Positions 1,080 through 27,413 of a stretch of 64,000 nucleotides of DNA are shown one piece after another. The notes beneath the pieces are model-generated. The model was given only the letters and a program-made list of their open reading frames with translations, was not told the origin of the DNA and searched no databases. The number at the start of each line of letters is the position of its first letter. Position 1 is the first letter of the stretch. The position numbers and the translations under genes were made by a program. The stretch comes from an uncultured Actinomycetes bacterium (GTDB taxonomy: Bacteria; Actinomycetota; Thermoleophilia; Gaiellales; Gaiellaceae): positions 151,921 to 215,920 of the forward strand of contig CAWIHQ010000004.1 of the NCBI GenBank assembly GCA_963835965.1, written 5' to 3'.

Positions 1080-1268
1080 GCGGACCTCTGAGACCGCGCT
1101 GGTCGTAGCAGAGGCTCCCGCCGCGGGGGATCGTCATCCAGCTGATGCAAGCCGAGGAACGCCCCGATCGTTCGGGGGTGGGAAGTGGCCGCCGCGGATT
1201 CGTGCGGACAAGATCACGGGGACGCGGCGTCAGCTCGCGCGCGCGTGCGCCGAGCTCCGCACGGTTCG

Positions 1269-1676: not shown

Positions 1677-2454
1677 GGCCGCGATTCTGCTCGACGTGGA
1701 CGGCGTCCTGCACGTCTCCGGCCAGCCGCTGCCGGGTGCGGCGGCCGCGGTGCGCAGCCTTCGCGAGGACGGGCACCGGCTCCGCTTCGTCACGAACGCG
1801 ACGACGCGCTCGAAGGCGGACCTTGCCGCGGGCCTACAGGCGATGGGCATCGAGCTCGAGGTGGGGGAGGTGCAGACGACAGCCGACGCAGCGGTCGAGG
1901 CCCTGCGTGGGCGGCGCGTCCTCGCGCTCGTCATGCACGCGCTCGTCGGCGACCTCGAGGGGATCGAGCTCGTGGGCGACAACGTCGACGCGGTCCTGAT
2001 CGGCGGCGCGGACGACTCGCCCGAGACGAACCTCGTCTTCTCGTACATGAACCTCGCGCGCGCGTTCGCGGAGCTCGAGCTCGGGGCCGACCTCTACTGC
2101 CTCCACCGCAACCGCTGGTGGCAGACGCAGCGCGGGCCGCTGCTCGACTCCGGCTGCTATGTCGCCGGGCTCGAGTATGCGGCTCAGACCGCGGCGACGG
2201 TACTCGGCAAGCCGAGCCCCGCCTACTTCGACGCCGCCTGCCGAGCGCTCGACGCCGAGCCCTCCATGGCGTGGATGGTCGGCGACGACCTCGAGACCGA
2301 CGTTGCCGGGGCGCGCGGCGTCGGGATGCGCGCCGTGCTCGTGCGCACCGGCAAGTTCCGGCCCGACGCCGTCGAACAGTCGCGGATCAGGCCGGACGGG
2401 ATCGTCTCCTCGATCGCCCATCTCCCCCAGTGGCTCGAGGAGCACATGGCGTGA
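1675..2454 (+). CDS. HAD-superfamily hydrolase, subfamily IIA (NagD/LHPP-like phosphatase)
   Basis: MAAILLDVDGVLH (DxDG nucleophile motif at the N-terminus), FVTNATTRS, GKPSP, MVGDDLETDV. ATG at 1675. Confidence 0.8.
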   Translation: MAAILLDVDGVLHVSGQPLPGAAAAVRSLREDGHRLRFVTNATTRSKADLAAGLQAMGIELEVGEVQTTADAAVEALRGRRVLALVMHALVGDLEGIELVGDNVDAVLIGGADDSPETNLVFSYMNLARAFAELELGADLYCLHRNRWWQTQRGPLLDSGCYVAGLEYAAQTAATVLGKPSPAYFDAACRALDAEPSMAWMVGDDLETDVAGARGVGMRAVLVRTGKFRPDAVEQSRIRPDGIVSSIAHLPQWLEEHMA

Positions 2455-2822
2455 GCGTCCACGTTGGCACCGATTTGATCGAGATCGAGCGGATCCGGCG
2501 CGCGCTCGCGCGCTACGCGCGCTTCCGCGAGCGCTGTTTTACGGAAGCGGAACGCGCCTACTGCGACTCGCGCCGGAACTCGGCGCAGAGCTACGCCGGC
2601 CGCTTCGCGGGCAAGGAGGCCGTCGGCAAGGCGCTCGGCTTCGGGGTCGCCCGGGCGTTCGCCTGGCAGGAGGTGGAGATCGTTGGACGTCCGAAGCCGG
2701 CGGTGCGTCTCTCCGGCCGGCTCGACGAGCGGGCGGCCTCGCTCGGGATCGAGGCCGTCGACCTCTCGATGACGCACTCGCGCGAGCTCGCGCAGGCTGT
2801 CGCGGTCGCTACAGATGCCTGA
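2451..2822 (+). CDS. acpS: Holo-[acyl-carrier-protein] synthase
   Basis: VSVHVGTDLIEIERI...FTEAERAYC...AGRFAGKEAVGKALG...EVEIV. GTG at 2451 overlaps the HAD stop (GTGA). Confidence 0.85.
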   Translation: MSVHVGTDLIEIERIRRALARYARFRERCFTEAERAYCDSRRNSAQSYAGRFAGKEAVGKALGFGVARAFAWQEVEIVGRPKPAVRLSGRLDERAASLGIEAVDLSMTHSRELAQAVAVATDA

Positions 2823-4143
2823 GCTCGAGCCGCTCTACTCCGCAGAGGAGATGCGCGCCGCCGAGGCGGGCCACGACGTCGACGCGATGATGCAGCGCGC
2901 GGGGGCGGCCGTGGCCGAGGAGGTCATTCGCCGCTTTCCCGACGCCCGCCGCATCGCGCTCCATGCGGGTGGCGGCGCGAACGGCGGCGACGGACGCATC
3001 GCCGCCGAGATTCTGTGCGCACAGGGGCGTGAGCTGGTCGACGAAGTGCCGGACGTCGTGATCGACGCGCTCCTTGGCACCGGGCTGAAGGGAGCGCCGC
3101 GGGAGGAGACGACGCGGCTCATCGAGCAGATCAACGAGGCGGGCGTTCCCGTCGTCGCCGTCGACATTCCCTCGGGCGTGAACGCGTCGACCGGAGAGGC
3201 AGCGGGCGGCGCCGTCCGGGCCGACGTCACCGTGACGATGCACGGCCCGAAGGTCGGCCTTGCGGTCGCTCCTGGCCGCTTCCACGCCGGTGAGGTGGCG
3301 GTGGCGGACATCGGCCTCGAAACGGCGGAGACCGAGCACCGGCTCGTCACGCCGGAGATCCTGGCCGAGGTGCCGCGCCGCTCGCCGCGCGACAACAAGT
3401 ACACGGCGGGCCACGTCCTCGTCGTCGGCGGCTCGCGCGGCATGACCGGAGCGCCGGCGCTCGCCGCCCGCGCCGCGTTCCGCGCCGACGTCGGCTACGT
3501 CACGATCGCCGCCCCGGCCGAGTCGCTTCCGGTCCTCGAGACACTCGTGCTGGAGGCCGTGAAGCGGCCGCTGGAGGATGTGTCCGAAGCTGCTGGACGC
3601 GCGAAGGCGCTAGCCATTGGACCTGGACTCGGACGCGAGAAGGAAGCGAAGACGCTCGTCCGTCGCCTCCTCACCGAGGTCGAGCTGCCCGCGGTCGTCG
3701 ACGCTGACGCACTCTTCGAGCTGGAGCCTGGCGAGTGGCCGGCCCCTCGTGTCCTCACCCCGCACGAAGGCGAACTTGCACGCCTGCTCGGGCGCGAGTC
3801 GAAGGAGATCGCGGCGCACCGGCTGGCCTCGGTGCAAGAGGCGGCGGAGACGTTCCGAGCGGTCGTCGTGCTCAAAGGCGAGGACTCCCTGGTCGCGGCC
3901 CCCGGTCGCGGCGTGCTGGTGTGCGCTCTCGGCCTCCCTTCGCTCTCGACCGCCGGCACCGGAGACGTGCTCACCGGCGTCACGGCCGCCTTCCTCGCAA
4001 AGGGGATGGAGCCACAGCGAGCGGCCGCTGCGGCCTGTGTGGCGCAGCAACTCGCATCCCACGAAGCTTCACAGCGCTATGGCCTCGTCGCGAGCGATGT
4101 GATCGAGGCCCTGCCGCGCGTGCTGGCTCTCGGTATCGGGTAG
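2815..4143 (+). CDS. nnr: Bifunctional NAD(P)H-hydrate repair enzyme Nnr (YjeF_N epimerase + ADP-dependent dehydratase)
   Basis: N-terminal YjeF_N-like region (GGGANGGDG, DALLGTGL). C-terminal carbohydrate-kinase-like region (KYTAGHVLVVGGS, GTGDVLTG). Overlaps the acpS end by 8 nt. Confidence 0.85.
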   Translation: MPELEPLYSAEEMRAAEAGHDVDAMMQRAGAAVAEEVIRRFPDARRIALHAGGGANGGDGRIAAEILCAQGRELVDEVPDVVIDALLGTGLKGAPREETTRLIEQINEAGVPVVAVDIPSGVNASTGEAAGGAVRADVTVTMHGPKVGLAVAPGRFHAGEVAVADIGLETAETEHRLVTPEILAEVPRRSPRDNKYTAGHVLVVGGSRGMTGAPALAARAAFRADVGYVTIAAPAESLPVLETLVLEAVKRPLEDVSEAAGRAKALAIGPGLGREKEAKTLVRRLLTEVELPAVVDADALFELEPGEWPAPRVLTPHEGELARLLGRESKEIAAHRLASVQEAAETFRAVVVLKGEDSLVAAPGRGVLVCALGLPSLSTAGTGDVLTGVTAAFLAKGMEPQRAAAAACVAQQLASHEASQRYGLVASDVIEALPRVLALGIG

Positions 4144-4444
4144 CCGGTCGATCCGCCAGATCTCCTCGGGAACCCGGAAGTTCTCGAGGCGGCCGGTCCG
4201 CTCCAGCCAGAACACGCGCCAGGGCGAACCGATCTCGAGTTGGAGTGAGAGCCAAGGGCCACTACGGAAGGGACCGAGGGACGGCGGGCGAGCTTGTCCC
4301 AGCGGGCGGCTACCGCGGCGAGCAACACGAGGGCTGCGAGCGCGACGACCCCGCAGCCTGTCCGTACGACGCCCAGGCGGGAGCCGCCTTCTCATCGGAC
4401 CGCAATCTGCCCCGCCTCCCGGCGTCCAACTAGGCTGGACGACC

Positions 4445-5458
4445 GTGCATCGGAGCGAGATCACGATCGACCTCGGCGCGATCCGCCACAACGCTCGGCG
4501 GCTGCTCCAGGCGCTCGCCGGAGCCGAGCTCTGGGCCGTCGTGAAGGCGAACGGCTACGGCCACGGCGCAACCGACGTTGGTCGGGCGGCGCTCGAAGCC
4601 GGCGCTTCGGCGCTCTGCGTCATCACCGTCGCCGAAGCGATCGATCTGCGTCGCGAGCTCCCGGAGGCGCGGATCATCGTGATGTGCCCGACCGACGAGC
4701 TCGCCGCAGCGCGCGAGGCGCGCGTGGAGCTCGTCGTCTCCGTCAGCGGCGAGATTCCGGCGGACCTTCCGGTGCACCTGAAGCTCGACACCGGCATGGG
4801 CCGCTGGGGGCTCGCGGAGCTGCCGGAACCGCCGGCGAACGTGCTCGGACTGATGAGCCATCTCGCCACGGCCGACACCGACGCTGCCTTCGCGCAGCGG
4901 CAGATCGCGCGCTTCCGCGAGGCGACGGAGGCGTACTCGCATCTCACGCGCCACATCGCAAACAGCGCCGCCGCGCTGCGGCTGCCCGAGGCCCGCTTCG
5001 ATGCCGCCCGCTGCGGGATCGCGCTGTACGGGATCTCGCCCTTCAACACGGATCCGCCCGCGAACGATTTGCGGCCCGCGCTGGCGTGGCGGAGCCGGCT
5101 CGCACGGGTCTTCCTCCTGCAGCCCGGAGAGAGCACCGGCTACGGACGACGGTTCGTCGCCGAGCGGCCGACGTGGATCGGGATCGTCCCCGTCGGCTAC
5201 GCGGACGGCTTCCGTCGAGACATGAGCGGCACCTACGTGCTCGTCGACGGCGAGTCGCGAGAGGCGGTCGGCACGGTCTCGATGGACGCGTTCGCCGTCG
5301 AGCTCGGGCGCGAGCTGCCGGTGGGAACGCCGGTCACCATCGTTGGTGACGGCCTGCCGATCGAACGCCACGCTCGGGTCGCCGGAACGATCGGGTACGA
5401 GATCGCCTGCGGGATCAACTCGAACCCGGCCCGGGCCCGCCGTGTCGTCGTCGACTGA
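4445..5458 (+). CDS. alr: Alanine racemase
   Basis: GTG start. AVVKANGYGHG (PLP lysine motif), HLKLDTGMGRWG, YGRRFVA...VPVGYADG, GYEI. Confidence 0.9.
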   Translation: MHRSEITIDLGAIRHNARRLLQALAGAELWAVVKANGYGHGATDVGRAALEAGASALCVITVAEAIDLRRELPEARIIVMCPTDELAAAREARVELVVSVSGEIPADLPVHLKLDTGMGRWGLAELPEPPANVLGLMSHLATADTDAAFAQRQIARFREATEAYSHLTRHIANSAAALRLPEARFDAARCGIALYGISPFNTDPPANDLRPALAWRSRLARVFLLQPGESTGYGRRFVAERPTWIGIVPVGYADGFRRDMSGTYVLVDGESREAVGTVSMDAFAVELGRELPVGTPVTIVGDGLPIERHARVAGTIGYEIACGINSNPARARRVVVD

Positions 5459-6143
5459 CCGCTTCGCCCGTACGGCGGACCGCGTCGCGGCGCGGCAGGA
5501 CTCTCGCGCGGCGCGGCTTGCGGAAGAGGTGCACGACTTCGTCCGGCCGCGCGGCGACGAGCGCGCGCTCGATGTCGGCACAGGCGTAGGGGCGCTGGCC
5601 TTCGCCCTCGCTCCGATCGTGCGGGAGGTCGTCGGGCTCGACCCCGTCCCGGAGCTGCTCGAGCTCGCGCGAGTCCGCAGCCTGTCGAACACGGAGTTCG
5701 TCGAGGGAGACGGAACTGCGCTGCCCTTCCCCGACGCCGCGTTCGACCTCGTGGGCACACATCGCACGCTCCATCACATAGCGGAGCCCGAGCTCGTCGT
5801 GGCCGAGCTCGCCCGGGTGACACGCGCCGGTGGTCACGTGGTCGTCGTCGATCAGCTCGCACCGGACGACCCGGCCGCGGCCGCTGCGCTCCACGAGTTC
5901 GAGACCGCGCGCGACCCCTCGCACACGCGCCTGCTCACCGACGAGGAGCTGCGGAAGCTCTTCGCGGCGAGCGAGCTCTCACTCCTCCGTGAGCGCCACG
6001 AGGAGGAGCGGCGCGACCTCTCGACGTATCTCGACCTCGCGGGCTGTGAGGGCGACCGCCGCGCCCACGCCGAGGCGCTTGCGGGAGCCGACGCCCGCGT
6101 CCTCGCCGCGAGCGTCGGCTGGTATCTGCTCGCGCGGAGCTAG
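5442..6143 (+). CDS. Class I SAM-dependent methyltransferase
   Basis: ALDVGTGVGALAFALA (motif I), FDLVGTHRTLHHI, GGHVVVVD. GTG at 5442 chosen (overlaps the alr end); start uncertain. Confidence 0.7.
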   Translation: MSSSTDRFARTADRVAARQDSRAARLAEEVHDFVRPRGDERALDVGTGVGALAFALAPIVREVVGLDPVPELLELARVRSLSNTEFVEGDGTALPFPDAAFDLVGTHRTLHHIAEPELVVAELARVTRAGGHVVVVDQLAPDDPAAAAALHEFETARDPSHTRLLTDEELRKLFAASELSLLRERHEEERRDLSTYLDLAGCEGDRRAHAEALAGADARVLAASVGWYLLARS

Positions 6144-6559
6144 CTCCCGGTGACGCCGCCTTCGAGGCTGGCGAACGCCTCGCGCAGCTGCGCGCGTTCC
6201 GTCTCGAGCTCGGTGAACGAGAGCATCAGGCGCCGCTCCCCCTCGGGCGTCAGACGCAGGTGAGCGACCCGCGCGTCCCGCTGCGACTGCTCGCGCTCGA
6301 TGAGCCCCGCGCCCTCGGCGCGGCGCACGAGCTCGGTCACAGTGCTCTGCGCGAGCTGCATCCGCTCGGACAGCTCGGTCACCGTTGACTGCTCGCCGCC
6401 GTTGCTCGCGCCCTTGATCATCATCAGCAGCGTGTAGCGCTGAGGCGTGAGCCCCGACTGGCGGGCAATCTTCTCGCTTCGCCGCAGGAAGTGCCGTAGA
6501 GCTGACCGGAACTCCGCAACGGCGATTACGTCCTGGATCGTCGCCTCCTGTTGGACCAT
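6140..6559 (-). CDS. MarR-family transcriptional regulator
   Basis: 139 aa. LTPQRYTLLMMI...TVTELSERMQLAQSTVTELVRRAEGAGLIERE...D.R...L.LTPEG is a winged-helix MarR pattern. Confidence 0.85.
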   Translation of the reverse strand: MVQQEATIQDVIAVAEFRSALRHFLRRSEKIARQSGLTPQRYTLLMMIKGASNGGEQSTVTELSERMQLAQSTVTELVRRAEGAGLIEREQSQRDARVAHLRLTPEGERRLMLSFTELETERAQLREAFASLEGGVTGS

Positions 6560-6568
6560 GCTGCGATT

Positions 6569-7318
6569 CTATGGAGCTTTCGGCAGGCGCGAAAGGACAC
6601 GGGTGAATACGTTCGGCATCGCGTCCTGCAGCGGGGCGACGGGACCGTAGTACCAGGGAACGGTCGTCTCACCGCGACCTTCGTCGAGCGAGCGGAGGAC
6701 GTGCGCCGCAACTTCCTGCGGGCCGATCACCACACGCTGGACGGGTGACGGCAGCCAGGACTGCGGAAATCCCTCCGTCTCGGTGAAGCCGGGTTTGACC
6801 GTATGCACCCGGATCCCCTCGCCGCGCAGCTCGGCTGCGATCGTGCGCGAGAAGGCGAGCTGGGCGTGCTTCGAGGCGGAGTACGGGCCGCTCGGTGGCC
6901 CGGCGACGACGCCCGAGACCGAAACGATGTTGACGACGTCCGCCGGCGCCGCCGCGCGCAGGCCCGGCAAGAAGCCGCGGAGGCACCAGATGGCGCCGAG
7001 GTAGTTGATCCGGATCAACCGCTCGATCACTTCGGGATCGCCGTCGAGGAAGCTCGTTCGTCCCGGGATCCCGGCGTTGTTGACGAGCAGGTCGATCTTC
7101 GGCTGCCGCTCGAGCACGCGTGCCGCGACGGATTCCACGGCAGCGCGGTCGGAGACGTCGCACGGCTCTGCCTCGGCGTTGAGCTCGTCGGCGAGCGCCT
7201 CGAGGCGCTCGGCGCGGCGGGCGAGCAGGATGCAGAGGTCGCCGCGCGCCGCGAGCAGGCGCGCAATCTCCACCCCGATGCCCGAGGAGGCGCCAGTGAC
7301 GACCACGACCCGGCCCAC
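6569..7318 (-). CDS. Short-chain dehydrogenase/reductase (SDR)
   Basis: VVVVTGASSGIG, NNAG, YSASKHA. GTG at 7318 chosen just before the Rossmann motif; the longer 318-aa ORF N-terminus looks non-coding. Confidence 0.8.
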   Translation of the reverse strand: MGRVVVVTGASSGIGVEIARLLAARGDLCILLARRAERLEALADELNAEAEPCDVSDRAAVESVAARVLERQPKIDLLVNNAGIPGRTSFLDGDPEVIERLIRINYLGAIWCLRGFLPGLRAAAPADVVNIVSVSGVVAGPPSGPYSASKHAQLAFSRTIAAELRGEGIRVHTVKPGFTETEGFPQSWLPSPVQRVVIGPQEVAAHVLRSLDEGRGETTVPWYYGPVAPLQDAMPNVFTRVLSRLPKAP

Positions 7319-7548
7319 GCAGGAGAGGCTATCTCTGGAGGAGGCCTCGGCGGAACGGAGGCCATGCCGGCCCGCCGCGCTGAGCGCCGCAACTCCTCGC
7401 TTCGCTCGTCGGCCGACTTCGTCGGCTGCAGCGTCTTCGGTCGCGCCGATAGGAACCGCTATCGGCGCTCCCTGCGTCCTTGCCTCGCGACACCCATCGC
7501 GACGCTCCAGCGGGCACCGCCCCACCGAGACCTCCTAGGATCGCCTCG

Positions 7549-8328
7549 ATGGCCGGAGCGTTCGCAGGGAGACGAGGGCTGGTGCTCGGGGTCGCCAACA
7601 AGCGATCCATCGCGTGGGCGATCGCGCGCGAACTGGCGGCAGGCGGAGCGAGCCTCGCCTTCACGTACCAGGGCGAGCGAATCGAGCCCACGGTGCGCGA
7701 GCTGGCCGCCTCGGTCGACGCCCCGCTGGTGACGGAGTGCGACGTCCGCTCAGACGAAGACGTGGCGCGGGTCTTCGGTGAAGTGGGAGAGGCGTTCGGC
7801 GGCGAGCTCGATCTGCTCGTCCACTCCGTCGCGTTCGCCGCGGCGGAAGACCTCGAAGGCCGCTTCACCGACACGCCGCGCGATCGCTTCTGGCTCGCGG
7901 TCGACGTGAGCGCCTACTCGCTCGTCGCCTGCGCGCGTGCGGCGGAGCCGCTGCTGGAGAAGGCCGGCGGCGGCTCGATCCTGACGATGACGTACCTCGG
8001 CGGCGAGCGTGCGGTGCCGCACTACAACGTGATGGGCGTTGCGAAGGCGACACTCGATGCGTGCGTGCGCTACCTCGCCTGGGATCTCGGCGCGAAGAAC
8101 ATCCGCGTGAACGCGGTCTCTGCCGGGCCTGTGCGGACGCTCGCGGCTCGCTCGATTGCAGGCTTCACGACGATGGAGGACATCGTCGAGGAGCGCTCGC
8201 CGCTGCACCGCCACGTCACCGCCGACGACGTCGGCGCGGCGGGCGCGTTCCTCCTCGGCGACGGTGCGGGCAACGTGACCGGGACGACGCTGTACGTCGA
8301 CAGCGGCTACCACGCGATGGGCATGTAG
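7549..8328 (+). CDS. fabI: Enoyl-[acyl-carrier-protein] reductase (NADH), FabI/InhA type
   Basis: GLVLGVANKRSIAWAIA, HSVAFA, YNVMGVAKATLDA (Tyr/Lys catalytic pair), RVNAVSAGPVRTLA. ATG at 7549. Confidence 0.85.
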   Translation: MAGAFAGRRGLVLGVANKRSIAWAIARELAAGGASLAFTYQGERIEPTVRELAASVDAPLVTECDVRSDEDVARVFGEVGEAFGGELDLLVHSVAFAAAEDLEGRFTDTPRDRFWLAVDVSAYSLVACARAAEPLLEKAGGGSILTMTYLGGERAVPHYNVMGVAKATLDACVRYLAWDLGAKNIRVNAVSAGPVRTLAARSIAGFTTMEDIVEERSPLHRHVTADDVGAAGAFLLGDGAGNVTGTTLYVDSGYHAMGM

Positions 8329-8329
8329 C

Positions 8330-9520
8330 TCAGACCCGCGTCCACGCGGGACGGTCGACTGCGACCTCGATCGGTAGCGCATCCGCCGGGGCTGCGTCCG
8401 AGGATGTCGACAGCCCGAGGTGCTCGGCGAGGAACGGGCTCAGGTACCGGCCGACGATCTTGCCGGGCGGCCACCACAGTGGCTGGGTGTCGACGACCGA
8501 CGGGCCGGCTTCCTCGTGACGCAGGAACCGCGGCACGAACCCGGTGAAGAGCAATCCGCGCAGGACCGGGCGGCACGGGCTCGGCTGCACATGCGCCCCT
8601 GCGTCAGCGGCGATCGCGTCGGCGACGGCATCCGCTTCCTGGGCTGCGATGCCGCCCTGCTTGATCGAGGACTGCATGAGATCGCCGGCGGCGTAGACAT
8701 CGGTGAGTCCGGCGACGCGGCCGTACTCGTCGGTCGGGACGAAGCCGCGTTCGTCCTGGGGTATGCCGTCGAGAGGAGCCCCCTCCAGCCTCGGAAGCGC
8801 GACGACGGCGTCGGCGGCGACCGCGCCACCGTCCGCGACTTGGAGCTCGCCGTCTCCGAACGCAACCGGCACCGTCGCCGTTTGAAGGGCGATCCCGCGC
8901 ATGTCGAGCAGCTGCGCCATCGCCTCGCTTGCCTTCGTCCCGAACAGCCCGAGCGGCTGCTCTTCCGGCGTGACGACTGTGAGCTCCGCATGCGTCATGT
9001 GCTCGGAGAGGTACTCGCCTGTCAGCAGGGCGAGCTCGTAGAGCGGCAACTGCCAGGTCGAATCTGCCGGAACGGCGAAGGCGAGCCGCCCCAGATCGCG
9101 AGTGGTCGCCCGCTCGAGCAGACCCGCCAGCTCTTCGCCGTCCTCGGGAAGGCCGCGGAAGGTCAACGCTCCGGGCACGGCGGGGAGCGGCCGCGCCCCC
9201 AGCGCGAGGACGAGGACGTCGTACTCGACCGTACTTCCGTCCGCGAGCACGGCGCGCGTCTCGTCCGGGTTCACCCCGACAAGCGCACCGTGGCGCAACT
9301 CGGCGCCCGCGGCGCCGACGAGCCGCGCGAGCGGGAACCGGCGAACCTCGCCGACGTGGAACGGCTCGGCCACCGCGAGCGGCCGGTAGACGAACTCTTC
9401 CTCCGGCGCGATCAACTCGACCGAGACGTGCTCCGCTGCGATCGCCTGCAGCGCGAGCGCGGCCTCGAGCCCGGCGACTCCGGCGCCGGCTACGACGACG
9501 TGCCTGCGACCGTCCTTCAT
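8330..9520 (-). CDS. FAD-dependent pyridine nucleotide-disulfide oxidoreductase (NDH-2 / sulfide:quinone oxidoreductase-like)
   Basis: MKDGRRHVVVAGAGVAGLEAAL (dinucleotide fold), DVLVLALGA, VYAAGD. Only the C-terminal 396 aa of the 811-aa track ORF look coding. ATG at 9520. Confidence 0.75.
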   Translation of the reverse strand: MKDGRRHVVVAGAGVAGLEAALALQAIAAEHVSVELIAPEEEFVYRPLAVAEPFHVGEVRRFPLARLVGAAGAELRHGALVGVNPDETRAVLADGSTVEYDVLVLALGARPLPAVPGALTFRGLPEDGEELAGLLERATTRDLGRLAFAVPADSTWQLPLYELALLTGEYLSEHMTHAELTVVTPEEQPLGLFGTKASEAMAQLLDMRGIALQTATVPVAFGDGELQVADGGAVAADAVVALPRLEGAPLDGIPQDERGFVPTDEYGRVAGLTDVYAAGDLMQSSIKQGGIAAQEADAVADAIAADAGAHVQPSPCRPVLRGLLFTGFVPRFLRHEEAGPSVVDTQPLWWPPGKIVGRYLSPFLAEHLGLSTSSDAAPADALPIEVAVDRPAWTRV

Positions 9521-9819
9521 CGCCGGTGATGATCGCACCGTGACCCCGCTGCGGCATCCGAAGCAAGTACGGATTCGCGCTCGGTGACCGTCCGGACCGC
9601 TGCCGCCGATTTGCGCGTATTCGGGGTGTGAGGCGTCTCCTCCCGGGGCTGCTGCTCGTCCTCTTCTACCACCACCACTGCGTCCCCGGCACGGCGCCCA
9701 ACCGGCGGAACCACCAGCTCTCCGGCACCGCTTCCTTCGTCGTCGAGCTCTCGGGCGGACGCGTCTCACCGCGCCAGGTGCGCCGCCACGGCGTGCAGTG
9801 CTCGCTCTCGGCGCTGTGC

Positions 9820-10296
9820 TCAGGCGCCCGCGTCGCCGGTGAAAAGCGCGCGCAGGTCGAGCGACGGCGCATGCGTCTGCGATGCGAGCGAGACGTACTC
9901 GCGGCCGAGGGCATCTTTCGCGGCTCCGAGCACGGTGCTCACCAGGCCGAGTGAGAGAGCCAGCTCCTTCGGCCGCAAGCGTGCGCAGAGCGCGGTCCAC
10001 GTCGCTTCTTCCAAGGCATTGAAGGCGCCCTGGACTTCCGTGAGGTCGTAGCCCGACTCGAAACGCTCCGCGGCGAGCTTCCGCGCGTAGTCGAGCACGC
10101 CCTCGAGATCGCGGCTCGACAGGGCCTCCAGCAGCTCGTCGTAGAGCAGCTCGATGCGGCGCCGGGTTTCTTCCTGCCCGGCCGCCTCGTAGTGGGTCCG
10201 GCTGTGCCGGAGCGACTCGCAGGCCGCGTCGACGATTGGCACTCGCTCCTGCTCGAGGACTTGCAAAACGTCGGCGCTTCCCCCAGGTTTGTTCAT
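9820..10296 (-). CDS. Hypothetical helical protein (possibly an RsbR-N/globin-like sensor-type domain; weak call)
   Basis: 158-aa ORF with protein-like composition and high GC3. Family assignment is from memory only. Confidence 0.45.
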   Translation of the reverse strand: MNKPGGSADVLQVLEQERVPIVDAACESLRHSRTHYEAAGQEETRRRIELLYDELLEALSSRDLEGVLDYARKLAAERFESGYDLTEVQGAFNALEEATWTALCARLRPKELALSLGLVSTVLGAAKDALGREYVSLASQTHAPSLDLRALFTGDAGA

Positions 10297-20517: not shown

Positions 20518-21591
20518 TCAGTCGAGGATGGCCACGTCGACCGAGGAGATCGAGGGCAGGTAGCTCGCGATCTCGCTCCACGTATCGCCCTCGTCCGCGC
20601 TCGCGAAGATCTGCCCGGTGCTCGTGCCGAAGTAGACGCCGGGGACGTCGTGCGAGTCGATCGTCATCCCCTGCCGCAGCACACCGAGGTGCGCGTTCAC
20701 CTGCGGCAGGCCGTCGCGCATCGGCTGCCAGCTCGAGCCGGCGTCGCGCGTGCGCCAGACGGTTGCCTTGCCCTCGTGCATCGTCCGCCCGTGGCCGCCA
20801 TCGACCGGGATGACGTAGAACGTCTCTGTGTCGTGGGGATGGACGACCGCCGCGAAGCCGAAGTCGCCCGGCAGGCCTTCGGTGATCTCGGTCCACGACA
20901 GGCCGGCGTCGTCCGAGCGGTGCATGCCCACGTGGTTCTGCTGGTACATGCGCTGCGGGTCGGCCGAGCGCACGAGCTTGTGCACGCAAAAGCCGACGTC
21001 GTCGTAGTCGGCCGGCCAGTCGCGGCGCAGGCCCTTGTTGCGCGGCGTCCACGACGAGCCGCCGTCCTCCGTCTCGAATGCGCCGACTCCCTGCACGATC
21101 GTGAAGAAGCTGTCGGAGTCGCCCGGGTCGGTGACGAAGCCCGAAATCCCGAGGTGCCCGGGCGGCTGGTTGGCCGGATCGTCCCAAGCCTCGCTTCCGT
21201 GCTGGCCTGACAGGGTCGACAGGAGCGACCAGGTCTTGGCGTTGTCGCGGCTCTCGAAGATCCCCGGCGCCTCGACGCCGACGAGCAGGCGGTCGCCGGC
21301 GCGCGCGAGCGTCGACACCTTCGAGATCTTGCGTCCGTCCTCGTCGCCGTAGGAGAGGCCTTCGCTCGACATCTCCCACGTCTCGCCAAGATCGGCGCTG
21401 CGCCAGACGGCGGAGCCGTGCCACTCGCTCGCGGCGGCCGCGTAGATCTCGCCGGTGGTCGGGTCGTAGATGGCGTGAAAGACGGGCCATCCCTCGCAGT
21501 ACGGGCCGCGCAGCGTCCAGTCGCGGCGGTCGTCGCTCTCGAGCACGAACGTGCCCTTGCGGGTCGCGACGGTCAGCATTGTCTTCGGCAT
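20518..21591 (-). CDS. BNR/Asp-box repeat beta-propeller protein (sialidase-fold, function unknown)
   Basis: Repeated S.D.G.(T/S)W units (SADLGETW, SRDNAKTW, TEDGGSSW, SDDAGLSW, TRDAGSSW, SADEGDTW). ATG at 21591. Confidence 0.7.
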   Translation of the reverse strand: MPKTMLTVATRKGTFVLESDDRRDWTLRGPYCEGWPVFHAIYDPTTGEIYAAAASEWHGSAVWRSADLGETWEMSSEGLSYGDEDGRKISKVSTLARAGDRLLVGVEAPGIFESRDNAKTWSLLSTLSGQHGSEAWDDPANQPPGHLGISGFVTDPGDSDSFFTIVQGVGAFETEDGGSSWTPRNKGLRRDWPADYDDVGFCVHKLVRSADPQRMYQQNHVGMHRSDDAGLSWTEITEGLPGDFGFAAVVHPHDTETFYVIPVDGGHGRTMHEGKATVWRTRDAGSSWQPMRDGLPQVNAHLGVLRQGMTIDSHDVPGVYFGTSTGQIFASADEGDTWSEIASYLPSISSVDVAILD

Positions 21592-21986
21592 CGATTCGCT
21601 CCTCAGCGGTCGCGGGACTGGTCGAGAGTGTTGCCGATCGGCCACTCTCTCGGGAAGAGACTGCGCGGCCGCCGGAAACTCATCGCCACCGGCGGCCGCT
21701 GTCACGAGGCACTGGTCAGCCGGCGAGAGGCTTCCCGGTCTCCAGGAGGGTTTTGAGGCCGCGGGATGGCTGCTGAGGACGGGGGCCGGGCCTGATTTGG
21801 CTGGGCTAGGGCGCTTGCGGATTCCCAAACGGCTGGCTGCTTGTCTGTTGGTCCGCAGCTAGGGCTGGCCGCTGGAGACGGTCGATGGGCTTGAGCGTGC
21901 ACGTCCGCAGTCTTCAACCGGTGTTCAGAAACTGCCTATTTGCAGGGTGTTTGTACCGTCCGGCGCGGCTGCTTACATGAGTTGCC

Positions 21987-22928
21987 GTGTTCCTCAGCCG
22001 ATTCGCAGATCCGACCCCCAGTAACCGCCCGAACCTGAGCTTCCGGCAGGAGCTCACTGCGACAGGCGCGCTCAAGGATGAGTGGAGCTTTGTTTGGGAC
22101 GACGCGCTGCGGTCGAACATCGCGGCGACCCTCCAGGACGTGGAGTTCGATGTCTACCTCGTGAACCGGTACAACGTCTTCTGGACGCCGCGCGCGATGA
22201 AGTTCAAGCACGCGATCGTCCAGGCGGCATCGGTCGCGGAGGCCGTCCTCGATTACATGCTCCGGATGGTCGAGGACGACCCGCGAGCGCAGAAGGAGCT
22301 TGGCTCGAAGTGGACGCTGCGGGACTTCGCGAAGGTCCCGATGCCCGGCGTGGACTTGCCGGAGGGAGTACGCGTCGTCTCCGGCACCCAGGAGCAGATT
22401 CCGAACGTCCTCGACCGGAATACGAAGATGCAGCTGCTGATACGAGCGGCCCGCGCGGTCGAGATCGTCGACGAAGATCTCGCCAAGGAACTGGACACGC
22501 TCCGCGACCTCAGGAACCGCATCCACATCAAGACCCTCACGGACCCTGAGTACGACGCGTACGAGCCGAAGATGGCGAACGATGCGCTCGACGTTCTCGC
22601 ACGCTTCCGCGATGTTGCTCTCCAGTGGACCGTAGAAACGCGGGCGGCGGAACTGCGCGAGCCCGTGCTGTCCAACGACCTCACGAGCCAGGTCAGGTCT
22701 GCGCACGCGAACCGCGACGACAACACCGAGTTCGACGTGGCCGCGGCGCTGGCGGTCGATGACCTGGTGGTTCACTCGACCCTCGGCGAAGGGCTGGTCG
22801 TCGCCGTCGAGGGCGAAATCGTCTCTGTGCGCTTCTTCGGCGACGGCGCCGTTCGTCGGTTGATGCTCCCTTACGCCCCGATGTACAAGACCGGGGTGTT
22901 CAGGGCCGACGACGACATCCCGTTCTAG
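21987..22928 (+). CDS. Hypothetical protein: HEPN-like helical domain (RDLRNRIH) fused to a C-terminal PcrA/UvrD-type Tudor-like domain
   Basis: 313-aa ORF from GTG 21987 with coherent protein-like sequence. ...LAKELDTLRDLRNRIHIK... fits Rx4-6H. The C-terminus DDLVVHSTLGEGLVVAVEGEIVSVRFFGDGAVRRLMLPYAPM resembles the helicase C-terminal Tudor motif G..V.H..FGEG.V..V.G....V.F...G.K.L.L.YAPL. Confidence 0.6.
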   Translation: MFLSRFADPTPSNRPNLSFRQELTATGALKDEWSFVWDDALRSNIAATLQDVEFDVYLVNRYNVFWTPRAMKFKHAIVQAASVAEAVLDYMLRMVEDDPRAQKELGSKWTLRDFAKVPMPGVDLPEGVRVVSGTQEQIPNVLDRNTKMQLLIRAARAVEIVDEDLAKELDTLRDLRNRIHIKTLTDPEYDAYEPKMANDALDVLARFRDVALQWTVETRAAELREPVLSNDLTSQVRSAHANRDDNTEFDVAAALAVDDLVVHSTLGEGLVVAVEGEIVSVRFFGDGAVRRLMLPYAPMYKTGVFRADDDIPF

Positions 22929-22929
22929 G

Positions 22930-23427
22930 TTGGCCACGAACGTTGTCTCCTTGCTCGTGGTCGCGCTCGGCGGCGGGATCGTCGCAGCGTTGTTGGGATC
23001 GTGGTTCGACCGGCTCTCGGCGCTGGAGGTCGCTCGACTAGTGGTGCAGGCGGAACTCATGGCCAACCTTGCGGCGCACCACGCATTCGCAGCCCTCGGA
23101 CCCGGCGACGAAGCACCGCATGTCCAGTACTCGACCAGCGGATGGCTCACCCACAGGGACAGGCTGGCCATCAGAGCGCAGCGTTTCCCGGACGTTTGGC
23201 AGGCGCTCACCAACTTCTACGCGCTTGTGCTGGCGCTGCCCTATGACAGCAGTCCGCTCGACGAGGACAGCGAGACGCAGGCGAGCTACGCCGTCGCGAA
23301 CCTCGACGTGCTGGAGCCGAGCACTCTGGAGCTCGTCCGGTGTATGGGCCACGACGCGCTTGGGCGATCTGGCGTGAGCGGCGCCGCGCGAGGGCCGCTC
23401 ACGCTAAAGGAACTGGCTGCTGACTAA
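22930..23427 (+). CDS. Small single-pass membrane protein, co-oriented and abutting the preceding gene
   Basis: TTG at 22930, 1 nt after the upstream TAG. N-terminal TM helix VVSLLVVALGGGIVAALLGSWF followed by a helical domain. Confidence 0.5.
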   Translation: MATNVVSLLVVALGGGIVAALLGSWFDRLSALEVARLVVQAELMANLAAHHAFAALGPGDEAPHVQYSTSGWLTHRDRLAIRAQRFPDVWQALTNFYALVLALPYDSSPLDEDSETQASYAVANLDVLEPSTLELVRCMGHDALGRSGVSGAARGPLTLKELAAD

Positions 23428-23535
23428 GCGGAAGGTCCGACCATTGGCTGCCCAACTTCCAGCAGCGTCTTGGGGCAGGTCGGGCCGGGTCGCGTCAGCG
23501 CCCGGGCGTTCGGATCGCCGCCCGGCCGGAAGCCC

Positions 23536-24153
23536 TCACCACGGGCTCTTCCCGACGAGGGACTTTGCTTCGGTCGCAATCGCCGTATCCACTTTCGCGC
23601 CGAGCTCCTCGACGAAGGCCCTCCAATCGAGGGCGTTCTGCTTGTAGAAGTCGGGAGGCGCCTTTCCCGTATCCACGATCTGCCCACGCTCTTCAACAAG
23701 CCTGTCTAGCTTCTCCTTGTCGTCGTCGGATAGATCGCAGAACGGGTCAACGCCCACGCGCTCGAAGAGACCGGCGACGGTTTTGACATCCGCTGACAGG
23801 ACGCCGAAGTCGCGGGCCTTCTCAGCGTCGCCCTTGGCCCGGGCTCGAACCATTTGGACCCAAAGTTCCCGCCACCCAGGGTGGACAACGAGATCCCATG
23901 CCGTCGGCGGCGGCTGCATCTTCATCAGCCAGTCTCGAACGCTCGCTGGGACGTTGCCCTCCCCGATTTGCTCTGCAAGCGCTGTTGTGACCTCGACGGC
24001 CACCTCCTCCACGTAGTTCTCCCACACTGCATATGAGAGCGCTACGGAGGCGACAAAGAGCGACTGCTCCTTCTTCGAGGGCTTGCCAACGCCCGACTTC
24101 GCAAAGCTCAGCACGTCATCGACCGCCTTGAGGCCGCCCCGCAAATCCTTCAA
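23536..24153 (-). CDS. Hypothetical protein with a RiboL-PSP/MAE_28990-type HEPN-like layout (Asp in place of the motif His)
   Basis: 205 aa. The N-terminal helix FVASVALSYAVWENYVEEVAVEV resembles the (A)HWEGF(V/I)K helix of these HEPN families. The C-terminal LDRLVEERGQIVDTG sits where L..L...RN.IAHG is expected. TTG at 24153 is the first possible start. Confidence 0.55.
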   Translation of the reverse strand: MKDLRGGLKAVDDVLSFAKSGVGKPSKKEQSLFVASVALSYAVWENYVEEVAVEVTTALAEQIGEGNVPASVRDWLMKMQPPPTAWDLVVHPGWRELWVQMVRARAKGDAEKARDFGVLSADVKTVAGLFERVGVDPFCDLSDDDKEKLDRLVEERGQIVDTGKAPPDFYKQNALDWRAFVEELGAKVDTAIATEAKSLVGKSPW

Positions 24154-24293
24154 TGCGTTGCTACGGCGATGGTGTGAAGCATGTCAGGGCTTACGACCAC
24201 CTAACCGCCTCTGCTCACGAAAAGGGCGGCTCGTCGCCGCCCCGTTCGACCCGTTCAGGTGTGCGCTACGCCGCGGGGCTAGCTCAGTCTGGA

Positions 24294-24794
24294 TCAGTCA
24301 TCGCACGTCATTTTTAGAGGTTTCAGACCGCTGAGGACGTACATCCAGCCGCCGGCGACGCTTTCCGCCGTCTTCGGCGCGCCCTCGAGTTGGTCGTGCA
24401 CGACGGTGAGCCTGGTGATGCCGCCGTCCTGGGGCTCGATCTCCCAGGTGACGCGGCTCTCCGCCTCCGCCGCCAGATCGGGGTCGTAACCCGCCGTCCA
24501 GCCGTGCACGAGCCTGCGCGGGGGATCGGCCTCGTACACCTCCTCGTCCCACTCGGCATCCCCGATCGCCGAGAAACGGCGGCCGTCGCGCACCTCGATG
24601 CGGGCGCCGAAGAAGTACTGCCGGGTGAACTCCGCCTGCGTGATCGCGTTCCAGACCTGCTCGGGTGTGGCGCGGATGAAGACGGAGTAGACCTGCGTCG
24701 TCTGTGCCAGCCCAGGGCCGCCGCTTGCGACGGCCCGGTCTTCCCGCTGGGCGTCCGCGGCTTTGCCGCCGACGTTTCCTGCAATGGTAGTCAT
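24294..24794 (-). CDS. SRPBCC/AHSA1-family protein
   Basis: YSVFIRATPEQVWNAITQAEFTRQYFFG..., RLVHGW..., TRLTVVHDQLEGAP...GGWMYVLSGLK. ATG at 24794 overlaps the arsR stop. Confidence 0.8.
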   Translation of the reverse strand: MTTIAGNVGGKAADAQREDRAVASGGPGLAQTTQVYSVFIRATPEQVWNAITQAEFTRQYFFGARIEVRDGRRFSAIGDAEWDEEVYEADPPRRLVHGWTAGYDPDLAAEAESRVTWEIEPQDGGITRLTVVHDQLEGAPKTAESVAGGWMYVLSGLKPLKMTCDD

Positions 24795-25108
24795 GCGGTG
24801 TCCTCCAGTTCGTGCTTGAGATCCGCGAGCGCCGCCACGCGGTGCTCGGTGTACTTGTCGATCCACCGGTCGTGGATGAGCCGGATCGGAACCGGGTTCA
24901 GGAAGTGGAGCTTCTCCCGGCCCTCCCGTCGGGTGACGACGAGCCCGGCTTCCTCGAGCACGCGCAGATGCTTCATCACACCGAAGCGGGTCATCTCCAG
25001 CTCGGACTCGAGCTCCGTGAGCGTGCGGCCGTCGCGCTCGAAGAGCTGGTCGAGCAAGTGACGCCGCGTCGGATCGGCGAGCGCCTTGAAGACCTGGTCG
25101 TCGTCCAC
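24791..25108 (-). CDS. ArsR/SmtB-family transcriptional regulator
   Basis: FKALADPTRRHLLDQL...RTLTELESELEMTRFGVMKHLRVLEEAGLV. This is the typical ArsR + SRPBCC gene pair. Confidence 0.85.
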   Translation of the reverse strand: MDDDQVFKALADPTRRHLLDQLFERDGRTLTELESELEMTRFGVMKHLRVLEEAGLVVTRREGREKLHFLNPVPIRLIHDRWIDKYTEHRVAALADLKHELEDTA

Positions 25109-25309
25109 CTTCTGGAGATTACGTGACCAAAGGCGATTTCCTTGACGGTAGGTAGTTCAGCGGCTATTCTTGGAGGGAGCAGGGGGCGGTGCTGAGGTTG
25201 GGTTAGTGTGACGAGTGCTCGAAGGAAGGGGAGGCCCTGCTGGTGTACTGTCGTGTAGCGTGTCTCGACTCGATCTCCCGACTCCTCGACTCTCGATCTC
25301 CTCTCATCC

Positions 25310-25986
25310 GTGATCGGGAGGTGAAATCGACGGCCACGACATCTCCATGACCTTGTCGTGTCTCGCGGGTCGCCGCGTCCCCGCTTCGGGAACTCGCTCG
25401 GACGCCTGCGAGCGTCGGGTGGAACTCCGGAATACGGATCGCAGTAGATGCGCCCTGGCTCTCGTTCGTCCCGCGCTTATCGTCCCATTCGAGCTTGCGC
25501 CCCTCGTCCGCTTTCGCGTGCCGGTCGGCGAGACCTTCGGCGTCTGGAAGAGAGGGCTGAGCGGAACATCGCCTGCGTAGCGGGCGGCATTGAGGTAGAA
25601 GGCGATCGCCTTCCGCGCTGTGTCGCCCGCACCCCGTATTCGGCGAACACCTCCAACAGCTGTCCCGTGGTCGCGTTCTCCTTGCCAAGCTAGACGGCTT
25701 CGGGGTAGTGCTCGCGGAGGACGCGTGCCAGCACCGTCTGCCGCTCGGACTTCGAGCCATGACGAACTCATGCAAGATCGGGAGCGCGGCCCGTCCGCGT
25801 CGATGAAGCGAGCGAGCGCATTCCCGCGATGTACTGCGTCTGCGCCGCGCCCGACATTCCCAGGAGGAATGAGCGATCGATGCGCTTCGGGATGCCCTTC
25901 TCCTTCATCAGATCCGCCTGGTTCAGGAAGGTCTTGTACGCGAAGTACGGGGGCGCCTGCTTGGAACTATCCGTGGCTGTCTCCAT
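25310..25986 (-). pseudogene. DUF5343-like gene, disrupted by frameshifts and a stop
   Basis: Frame 1: METATDSSKQAPPYFAYKTFLNQADLMKEKGIPKRIDRSFLLGMSGAAQTQYIAGMRSLA. It continues in other frames (RQTVLARVLREHYPEAV*, ..ATTGQLLEVFAEYGV.., ..ARKAIAFYLNAARYAGDVPLSPLF). Family call is from memory. Confidence 0.5.
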
Positions 25987-26152
25987 CAGCCAACCTCCTG
26001 GTACGTGTGGATTGTCTCGCGTACCGTAGCCGGTACACCCGCGTGGCGCAAACACGGATGCCGGAGAAGTGCGGATTTCTTTGGCACGACCCGACTGTCT
26101 CGCGTAGCTTGGGAGCAGGAGGTGAGTGCAAATGCGCTTGGCTGAGCCAGGA

Positions 26153-26350
26153 ATGGCGGTGACGGTTCGCACGGCGGATGGAAAGGAACTCGCGCGTGTG
26201 GCTGTCAGCGGTGTGGTCGATGGGGCAGATTTCCCGTCGTCTGGGTCTGCTCGGAGGAGGAATGGGCCGCGGCGCACGGGAGCGGGAACGTTCCGACAGC
26301 GCTTCCGTGGCCTGCGGAGGATGTACGGCCGGCTGAGGAACAGGTGCCCG
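26153..26350 (+). pseudogene. Small hypothetical gene with a +1 frameshift
   Basis: MAVTVRTADGKELARVAVSGVVDGADFP then, one base out of frame, VVWVCSEEEWAAAHGSGNVPTALPWPAEDVRPAEEQVPA*. The second half is protein-like only in the shifted frame. Confidence 0.35.
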
Positions 26351-26459
26351 CGTGACCGAGAAGAAAGAGCCGGAGGAGAAGCCCTATGCGCGAGCGGACT
26401 TCATGCGCGATCTCGGAGAAGGCATCTAGGAAGCTAGAGCCGGAGAAGAAGGCGAAGAA

Positions 26460-27345
26460 GCGAACGCCCTTCCGGACGTTCCGGAGGAAGACCTTGAACA
26501 TCGGCACGCGATCGTGGCGGTGGCTGTACTTGAACGCGAACTCCTGCACGTAGAGTCCGAGCCACTTACGGGCTGACGTTGTGCTGGACGCCTGAGAGCC
26601 CACGCTTCACGTTGCCGAAGAACCCCTCGATCGTCTGCGTATGAACGTCGCCCTGCGCGTAGATCGATTCCGTGTGCTTGATCGTGTAGTGACGTGCGAA
26701 CTCCGCGCCAAGTCCCGCATATAGCGTGAACTCGTCCGTGTAGATCGTCGCGTCTGGGCTGACGTTGGCGCGGATTGCGGCGTGGAGCGTTTCGCGGCTC
26801 CGGTCCGGAACGACGATCGCGCGTGCCCGACCGCCGCGCTCGACCATTGCGAGATCGTCGGGCGACTCTGAATCTTCGCCATAGCGTCCTGCCGACGCCG
26901 TGTCGATGTTGCGGCGCGCGACGGTCCCCTGCTCGAATCTTCCCGCCCCACGCTGACTCGTCAATCTCGACCTCGCCGCGCAACGGCGTTGTGTCGTCGT
27001 CGAGTAGGAGGCGCCGGATCATGTTGAACATGCGCCATGCCGTCTTGTACGTCACGCCGATTTCGCGTTCGAGTTGCTTCGCGCTGATACCGCAGCGTGT
27101 CTGGCTCATGATGAAGATCGCGTGGAACCACACCGCAACGGCGTCGTGGACTTCTCGAAGATCGTCCCCGCTGTCGGATGGACATGGTGGCCGCACGAAT
27201 CGCATGAGACGAGTGCGGCCTTTACGCGATGGACCGGCGTGGTCTGCCGCACTTCGGACAATCGGCAGTGATCCGTCGACGCTGGGAGTTGCGCCAGAGG
27301 TATGAGGCAGGCGTCATCCGTCGGGAACGGTGGAAAGGTGAGCGT
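26460..27345 (-). mobile_element. IS1595-family (ISXO2-like) transposase gene remnant with at least 3 frameshifts
   Basis: The pieces lie in four frames. (1) Zn-ribbon/N-terminus ...FPTDDACL...CDSCGHHVHPTAGTIFEKSTTPL. (2) WFHAIFIMSQTRCGISAKQLEREIGVTYKTAWRMFNMIRRLL...GEVEIDESAWGG. (3) DDE core ...AIVVPDRSRETLHAAIRANVSPDATIYTDEFTLYAGLG..HYTIKH...YAQGDVHTQTIEGFFGNVKRGLSGV. (4) KWLGLYVQEFAFKYSHRHD. No inverted repeats identified. Confidence 0.7.
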
Positions 27346-27413
27346 GTACGCTTGGGGCGGGGGGCGCAGAAGAAAGGAGTGGGGCAAGGTCACATGTCAA
27401 GTTGTCCCTTCGC

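Follow-up and report, generated by a model that had tools for sequence, protein, structure and literature searches.

A probable mobile-element remnant in a Gaiellaceae genome carries a gene for a HEPN-like protein with a Tudor domain of the UvrD/PcrA type and a tail resembling the SSB tip

An SRPBCC gene with a block inserted at its 3′ end

We analyzed a 64-kb stretch of DNA (64,000 nucleotides of contig CAWIHQ010000004.1, from an uncultured bacterium of the Gaiellaceae; here called the window) and, within it, a strain-specific island of 2,559 bp (positions 21763..24321, no strand assigned) that holds three genes. The first, g1 (21987..22928, + strand), encodes a protein of 313 amino acids (aa) for which homologues and AlphaFold2 (AF2) models predict a HEPN-like domain, a Tudor domain of the UvrD/PcrA type, and a tail resembling the C-terminal tip of the SSB (single-stranded DNA-binding) protein. 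The second, g2 (22930..23427, + strand), encodes 165 aa with a single N-terminal hydrophobic helix (about residues 4-24, from hydropathy and six homologues). The third, g3 (23536..24153, − strand), is convergent with g2 and encodes a 205-aa HEPN protein of the RiboL-PSP type (PF18735). A preliminary description of this DNA had proposed a compact toxin or abortive-infection module of three genes, and it placed the open reading frames (ORFs) where we find them; it also described g2 as a single-pass membrane protein with a TTG start 1 nucleotide (nt) past the stop of g1, which is a TAG.

Related loci were collected with the flanking BNR/Sortilin-like protein as the query and one genome per species, which gave 79 loci, nearly all from metagenome-assembled genomes (MAGs) of Gaiellaceae/Thermoleophilia. 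Homologues of g1, g2, and g3 were absent from all 79, so that the presence/absence comparison suggested earlier for a block between conserved flanks came out in favor of an insertion. Some 35 close relatives keep the order DUF2269-ArsR-SRPBCC-BNR-MoaD, with SRPBCC abutting BNR without a gap. Alignment by blastn to more than 12 related Gaiellaceae loci placed the breakpoints at window positions 21762 and 24322, outside the limits of 21850-24290 first given for the block, and the flanks overlap at the breakpoints by 9-10 bp in every relative compared. The GC content of the island is 0.641, compared with 0.693 ± 0.017 (minimum, 0.654) in 534 windows of equal size from the rest of the 64 kb (z = −3.0); it runs at 0.62-0.66 along the island and at 0.70-0.74 in the flanks. 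The low GC reported previously is therefore real, but it is milder than the hand counts had suggested (58-65% against 70%+). The block is foreign DNA that lies between conserved neighbors, inserted where the SRPBCC gene has its 3′ end.

The junctions show how the host gene was affected. The SRPBCC (AHSA1-like) gene (24294..24866, − strand; Pfam AHSA1, E = 1.4e-18) was compared at its junction with relatives, and its final ~9 codons (24294-24321) are now island-derived (..GLKPLKMTCDD*). Its native 3′ end lies displaced on the other side of the island (21717..21762, − strand), where it encodes ..GLKTLLETGKPLAG plus a stop, and the translation is the C terminus of the relatives' SRPBCC proteins. 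This displaced end includes an attR-like copy of a short attB segment, GCGGCCTCAA, and an attL-like copy, GCGGTCTGAA, lies at about 24322-24331; an imperfect copy of the attB segment (10-14 bp, GCGG[T/C]CT[G/C]AA) is present at both island junctions. A related Gaiellaceae MAG (locus L028) carries a 9.2-kb insert at exactly the same SRPBCC 3′-end position (L028 ~802-9999), with ~37 bp of element-end sequence in common with window positions 24285-24321. Because both the position and the end sequence are shared with this second insert, the SRPBCC 3′ end appears to be a recurrent attachment site. The L028 insert is a decayed element of phage-like or integrative type. It contains a split EcoRI-type methylase, fragments of GmrSD_N, Clp, and small-terminase genes, and, beside its junction on the BNR side, serine-recombinase fragments. 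The window island is a 2,559-bp remnant that contains no recombinase. Terminal inverted repeats or long direct repeats were represented in the island only by chance-level short matches, and a promoter and terminator scan gave only background-level results. For the Gaiellaceae, a poorly studied soil lineage, the locus provides a record of repeated integration at the SRPBCC 3′ end. A link between the g1-carrying elements and the L028 type of element was considered and found unsupported, the serine recombinases of L006, a locus with a g1 homologue, and L028 being 28% identical over 114 aa.

Architecture of the g1 protein

The GTG start of g1 yields an N terminus (MF..RF) that agrees with the family. 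A collection of 5.8 billion proteins contained 61 close homologues, and 436 relatives emerged when 1.84 billion representatives were searched exhaustively with a profile, many of them stand-alone proteins of ~200 aa made up of the N-terminal domain only. No classification of g1 was obtained in Pfam, NCBIfam, PADLOC, or PHROGs, and none of 70 distant relatives had a Pfam match, HEPN models included. Profile searches against PDB sequences returned only weak UvrD Tudor or spurious matches, and a fold search of BFVD returned only small Tudor-like ones. AF2 models had confidence scores (pLDDT) of 83.8 and 93.9, the latter for a domain-only model (pTM, 0.87).

The N-terminal domain (aa 1-242; 21987..22712, + strand) is modeled as a helical domain with a beta-hairpin insert at aa 107-139. 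When the domain-only model was compared with the PDB by Foldseek, HEPN proteins made up more than 30 of the top 50 matches, with target-normalized TM-scores of 0.5-0.62 and probabilities up to 0.99. Among them were HepT (7bxo/6m6u/7ae6), YutE (1ylm), AF_0298 (2hsb), and the HEPN domains of Csm6. The full-length model had given a single HEPN match, its list being crowded by the Tudor domain, and the use of the domain-only model removed this crowding. A weak PADLOC match to the Csx1/Csm6 HEPN (E = 0.014) was obtained for one distant relative, and it agrees with weak Pfam matches in the family to HepT-like_2, HepT-like, and DUF4145. The signature of the domain is RDLRNRIH (R173..H180; 22503..22526, + strand), identified from alignments and from motif counts in distant relatives: an alignment of 37 homologues contains an invariant ..LRxxRNRIHIK.. 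motif, and the family signature is RxxRNxIH. In a comparison of 102 sequences (16-83% identity), E85, R176, and H180 never vary, and R173, N177, K74, and N44 do so only rarely. With the caveats weighed below, we accept the domain as HEPN-like but outside any curated HEPN family. The preliminary description had called g1 a HEPN-like protein with a Tudor domain, and the structural matches of the AF2 models bear out both halves of that assignment.

The Tudor domain (aa 257-304; 22755..22898, + strand) is of the UvrD/PcrA C-terminal type. Its model, a Tudor/SH3-like barrel of five strands, matches 7egt_B with a target-normalized TM-score of 0.90, a root mean square deviation of 1.0 Å, and 40% identity, and further matches were found to 9dqs, 5dma, 6yi2, and 7egs. 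The corresponding Pfam model, PF21196, scores 16.1 bits on the window protein, below its cutoff of 23.9; it matches 15 of 37 members of the family (best E = 3e-6), and a Tudor domain is present in ~40% of the family.

The protein ends in the hexapeptide DDDIPF (22908..22925, + strand), which is identical to the C-terminal tip of Escherichia coli SSB (SSB-Ct). This tip is the element recognized by SSB-interacting proteins (PMC5872125). About 50 of the 61 family members end in DDDIPF or a close variant, with or without a Tudor domain. A D[DE]xPF terminus occurs in 17 of 11,495 ORFs of at least 80 aa across all DNA examined, and all 17 belong to the g1 family. Distant stand-alone relatives do not have the tail, which indicates that it was gained within the branch of g1. 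The protein is a carrier of the tip rather than an SSB, since its AF2 model (a helical bundle plus Tudor) contains no oligonucleotide/oligosaccharide-binding (OB) fold and no SSB Pfam match was found; an SSB gene with which to compare the tail was not present in the DNA examined. In Tudor-less members (P0004, P0005, P0006, P0023, P0043, P0053, and others), the linker ahead of DDDIPF contains one to three internal copies of an acidic-aromatic motif, D[FYW]GP(P), as if the docking peptide had been repeated.

Distribution and partners of the three genes

The two other genes of the island differ from g1 in their state and in their distribution. For g2, the protein collection contained only 6 homologues, and no family assignment was obtained in Pfam, PADLOC, NCBIfam, or PHROG; from its sequence it appears to be an unclassified membrane protein. 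A second contig of the same strain (L004; 3 differences in 1,797 bp) carries an extra C relative to the window at about position 23336. The 1-nt deletion at this position shifts the frame of the last ~28 aa of the window g2 relative to the family consensus, whose C terminus is basic (PVYGPRRAWxIWRERRRR).

The third gene belongs to a described family: 61 homologues of g3 were recovered from the same collection, nearly all of them already annotated as PF18735, in agreement with the earlier designation of g3 as a HEPN protein. On the window protein the PF18735 match is marginal (28.6 bits against a cutoff of 28.4) and covers an N-terminal stretch only; on the homologue P0063 it reaches 41.3 bits over profile positions 125-189, the catalytic region. 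NCBIfam and PHROGs yielded no useful match for g3. The family motif R-G-x-I-V-H-T-G reads RGQIVDTGK in the window. The catalytic His of R156-x4-H161, kept in 30 of 31 aligned family members, is an Asp here (codon 161, GAT; 23671..23673, − strand), with R156 present; the substitution was established from the alignment and the DNA read, and P0275, which comes from an independent assembly of the same or a near-identical strain, has the same Asp at position 161. Three-frame translation was compared with P0275 and with the N termini of the family (24160..24182, − strand). By this comparison, a 1-nt deletion inside GCCGTAGC (24167-24160) puts the putative ancestral ATG (24182-24180) out of frame. 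P0275 keeps the family-type N terminus (..IADSNALKDL..), within which the TTG listed as the start (24153) falls at an internal position. Because the catalytic His is replaced by Asp and the ancestral start is out of frame, the window g3 is probably inactive.

Homologues of g3 are solitary genes in varied mobile or defense settings, which include an integrase with a type IIG restriction-modification (R-M) system, a TrwC relaxase, a DUF4011 helicase, helix-turn-helix (HTH), TIR, and IS481 genes, and a DndB gene 13 bp upstream. This last case is the closest homologue (74% identity, intact His; L109 320-2284), which lies 13 bp downstream of a DndB-family gene that was recognized by Pfam (DndB) and PADLOC (DndB, E = 5.6e-10). 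This arrangement points to a pairing of RiboL-PSP HEPN genes with DndB-like proteins in some cases.

These signs of decay raise the question of whether the whole island is decaying junk in which no gene is functional. The recombinase has been lost, g3 combines H161D with an out-of-frame start, the g2 C terminus is frameshifted, and an insertion sequence (IS) remnant lies nearby. However, g1 is full length, all of its family-invariant residues as well as its Tudor domain and tail are intact, and its GC content at third codon positions (GC3, 0.87) is coding-like; furthermore, the two 1-nt differences in g2 and g3 may be assembly errors. We consider it highly improbable that the island is junk throughout.

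Family hidden Markov models (HMMs) of g1, g2, and g3 were searched against the six-frame translation of 110 loci (1.62 Mb). Relatives of g1 were detected in 20 loci, of g3 in 8, and of g2 in 4, the sole overlap being g1 with g2 in L004. In none of the 110 loci did g1 and g3, or g2 and g3, occur together. Co-occurrence of the three families had been named beforehand as a test of the three-gene proposal, and this result goes against it. An apparent co-occurrence of P0011 (g1 family) and P0078 (g3 family), suggested by a longest contig of 9,640 bp for each, was rejected as a coincidence when tblastn of L001 found no g3 homologue. The 1-nt arrangement of the g1 stop and the g2 start is repeated in one further contig at ~80% identity (P0002/P0123). 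Beside g1 homologues at 75-79% identity (L005, L006), both g2 and g3 are absent, and g2 is missing from ~11 independent g1 contexts with downstream sequence. Conversely, L007 and L107 each have a g2 homologue, and not even the HMM revealed a relative of g1 in the 2-8 kb around it. The g1-g2 combination is a lineage-specific pairing, and the three families are distributed independently.

These distributions bear on two alternative explanations. Under the first, which is that of the preliminary description, all three genes belong to a single toxin or abortive-infection module in which two HEPN nucleases and a membrane protein act together. The genes are tightly packed, with a g1-g2 gap of 1 nt, HEPN-type domains occur in two of the three, and all three lie inside foreign DNA. 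This explanation is nevertheless very unlikely: it is largely refuted by the complete lack of g1+g3 and g2+g3 loci among the 110, the closest g1 homologues with flanks (L005, L006) have neither partner, and g3 has lost its catalytic His. In addition, a search of PADLOC-DB 2.0 recognized neither these genes nor intact relatives of them. What stands of the original proposal is that the DNA is foreign, that it carries HEPN-type genes, and that relatives of g1 lie near R-M and mobile genes; a conserved module is not supported, and g3 is unlikely to be an active toxin. As a three-gene toxin island, the locus is ordinary, a decayed mobile-element remnant with passenger genes.

Under the second explanation, g1 and g2 form a two-gene system, either as sensor and effector or as toxin and immunity partners, and g3 is an unrelated passenger. 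Consistent with this, the 1-nt spacing is kept both in the P0002/P0123 contig and in L004, and the conserved basic WRERRRR C terminus of the g2 consensus suggests a real protein. In contrast, g2 is missing beside the L005 and L006 homologues of g1 and beside all more distant ones, the g2 homologues of L007 and L107 have no g1 nearby, and there are 6 homologues of g2 against at least 61 of g1, with the C terminus of the window g2 frameshifted. We therefore regard a g1-g2 system as doubtful.

To characterize the surroundings of g1, we compared the flanks of the family representatives together with 14 further g1 loci from metagenomes. R-M genes lie within ~2 kb of g1 in five of the eight independent contexts with enough flanking DNA. 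They comprise EcoO109I-like restriction endonucleases, an MT-A70 methyltransferase, N6_N4 methyltransferases, of which one has an Mrr nuclease domain fused to it, and a C5 methyltransferase with an EcoRV-like restriction endonuclease. Integrases, a serine recombinase, IS110, and VapBC are also often found near g1 homologues. One compact and defense-like cluster (L094 5220-9592) consists of an IS110 transposase, a C5 DNA methylase, an EcoRV-like endonuclease, a 217-aa gene, g1, and a VapBC-like pair (72 aa plus PIN). No conserved neighbor of g1 homologues was found in the contexts compared. A convergent neighbor of ~340 aa that recurs beside g1 (L091, L095, L097) was considered as a partner and rejected, as it is the housekeeping ornithine cyclodeaminase. 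No MNT nucleotidyltransferase was found in the island or beside any g1 or g3 homologue examined, and a search for an antitoxin RNA gave no Rfam match at E ≤ 1, no tandem repeats, and a leader fold z-score of 0.19.

The same contexts inform a third alternative, in which g1 has no role in defense and is instead an accessory RNA-processing or DNA-repair factor, carried on mobile DNA by chance, that acts together with RNA polymerase and the SSB interactome, for example, in the clearance of R-loops or stalled transcripts, as UvrD/PcrA-associated factors do. Both of the modules appended to the g1 protein, the UvrD/PcrA Tudor and the SSB tip, come from the genome-maintenance toolkit, some g1 genes have housekeeping neighbors, and no defense database matches the protein. 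Set against this are the patchy, strain-specific distribution of g1 (none of the 79 relatives at this locus), the recurrence of R-M genes, recombinases, and IS elements beside it, the low GC of the island, and the fact that its closest structural matches are HEPN toxins. On balance, a role of this kind seems unlikely.

Other features of the locus were noted outside the island. A second insertion, a decayed IS1595-family element, lies between ArsR and DUF2269 (25134..27385, no strand assigned), where the spacing in relatives is ~45 bp. It contains a frameshifted transposase remnant (26566-26964, − strand; DDE_Tnp_IS1595, E = 6e-23), in keeping with the decayed mobile DNA reported at 25.1-27.4 kb in the preliminary description. 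By its breakpoints, this insertion is strain specific and separate from the island. The ArsR-SRPBCC pair is variably present among relatives: DUF2269 directly abuts BNR in several of the loci L032, L036, L039-L041, L044, L046, and L082, and in L020 and L085 all three genes of the DUF2269/ArsR/SRPBCC stretch are missing. The locus is a hot spot for gene-content variation. On the BNR side, the BNR/Sortilin-like ORF as listed (20518-21828, − strand) is overextended at its 5′ end, homologues aligning from residue ~58-80, and translation probably begins at the ATG at 21591; the surplus 5′ part of the listed ORF overlaps the SRPBCC 3′ fragment that was displaced.

Interpretation and comparison with known systems

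Taken together, these results are best explained if the island is the remnant of a site-specifically integrated mobile element that carries three independent cargo genes, with g1 as the one functional unit, encoding a defense-type HEPN ribonuclease (RNase). We regard this joint explanation as probable, though by no means certain. According to it, an integrative element would have recombined site specifically into the SRPBCC 3′ end, and its recombinase and most of its length would later have been lost, leaving the three cargo genes. By its sequence, its models, and analogy, g1 would encode a self-contained HEPN-type RNase of the abortive-infection or defense kind, in which R176 and H180, with E85, form the predicted RNA-cleaving site, probably across a HEPN dimer. 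From the names of the matched PDB entries, we take RNA polymerase beta or UvrB to be what the UvrD/PcrA Tudor domain binds in the related helicases. In g1, this domain and the tail may dock or gate the RNase on transcription and replication/repair hubs, so that its activity would be coupled to a disturbance of these hubs, such as phage infection; the tail itself may serve for recruitment, for autoinhibition, or as bait. In this scheme, g2 would be a late add-on, translationally coupled to g1 only in this sublineage, and g3 a solitary RiboL-PSP HEPN gene that was inactivated here.

Several observations weigh against this explanation. With regard to the HEPN assignment, no curated HEPN model of Pfam, NCBIfam, or PADLOC scores above threshold on g1; the best Foldseek E value among the HEPN matches is 0.05, so that these matches to a domain with a large insertion are individually nonsignificant; and the Pfam matches of the family to HepT-like_2, HepT-like, and DUF4145 are below threshold (HepT-like_2 in 8 of 37 members, best E = 0.005). 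An hhalign comparison of the g1 and g3 families gave a probability of 1.3%, with the motif stretch alone aligned. The spacing of the motif is also atypical if the invariant residues are taken, R176-H180 being Rx3H, and it is the near-invariant R173 that forms the canonical Rx6H with H180. With regard to defense, no defense database recognizes g1, three g1 contexts are purely housekeeping, and family-pattern scans found no relatives of the g1 or g3 family in viral contigs. With regard to integration, no recombinase gene or remnant was found within 21763-24321, and the junction repeats are short and diverged; the top local alignment of the junctions is a nearby identical 10-mer, CGTCCTCAGC, which was equaled by 5 of 500 shuffles. 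The tail tip is modeled with low confidence (pLDDT, 49), the roles given to the Tudor domain and the tail in g1 are drawn by analogy, and the 1-nt deletions in g2 and g3 may be either assembly errors or real decay.

A more specific proposal can be made for the g1 family. Its members may make up a class of immune RNases, not described before, in which a single HEPN protein offers bait in the form of an SSB-tip mimic and, in some members, of a UvrD-type Tudor domain as well. Through the tail, the nuclease would be kept silent or parked on SSB-interacting or RNA polymerase hubs of the host until phage replication proteins, which normally bind the SSB tip, captured or displaced the tail; RNA cleavage and abortive infection would follow. 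We offer this as a speculative model that is unlikely to hold. With Retron-Eco8, Hna, AbpAB, and DARNA, a shared trigger of phage defense is coming to light, namely, SSB and the replication machinery. If the model is true, a nuclease that bears the SSB tip would represent a new wiring of an effector to the SSB hub. The family itself comprises at least 436 proteins without a Pfam, NCBIfam, or PADLOC model, and in its soil-actinobacterial branch a predicted HEPN-like nuclease domain is fused to modules that normally recruit to RNA polymerase and SSB. Neither the combination of a HEPN-like domain, a UvrD-type Tudor, and an SSB tip nor such a tail on a HEPN protein was found in the searchable literature.

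Among known systems, the best structural matches to the N-terminal domain of g1 are the HepT toxins of HEPN-MNT pairs (Shewanella SO_3166, 5yep/7bxo; Aphanizomenon HEPN, 7ae6). Like HepT, g1 is modeled as a helical bundle with a conserved Arg...His pair. Unlike HepT, it lacks both a neighboring MNT antitoxin gene and any conserved partner; its domain is ~100 residues larger, has a beta-hairpin insert, and is followed by the Tudor domain and the SSB-tip tail; and its signature is RxxRNxIH, in contrast to the Rx4HxY of HepT. It also differs from type III toxin-antitoxin and AbiF-like HEPN systems, as no antitoxin RNA was found upstream.

Single-protein HEPN abortive-infection systems exist, for example, DARNA/PD-T7-3, and DARNA is tied to SSB biology (bioRxiv 10.64898/2026.02.22.705581). 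Like DARNA/PD-T7-3, ApeA, and HepS, g1 is one polypeptide in which a HEPN-like domain is joined to an appended region, and it occurs in mobile and defense contexts with no separate antitoxin. In contrast to these systems, it has no sequence match by PADLOC, and its defense function is a prediction. The appended regions also differ: DARNA has a C-terminal Pds5-like helical repeat that binds single-stranded DNA, and in g1 its place is taken by the Tudor domain and the SSB-tip peptide.

The remaining likenesses are confined to single domains. The g3 protein and its 61 homologues are members of the RiboL-PSP-HEPN family PF18735 and share its R-x4-H motif, from which the window g3 departs by its Asp in place of the catalytic His and its out-of-frame ancestral start. 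The Tudor domain of g1 has a predicted fold nearly identical to that of the UvrD/PcrA C-terminal Tudor (PF21196; Thermus thermophilus UvrD) but is joined to a HEPN-like domain rather than to a superfamily 1 (SF1) helicase. As in SSB, the hexapeptide of g1 stands at the extreme C terminus, after a low-confidence and probably flexible linker; unlike SSB, the g1 protein is modeled without an OB fold, and some members of its family add D[FYW]GP(P) repeats ahead of the tip.

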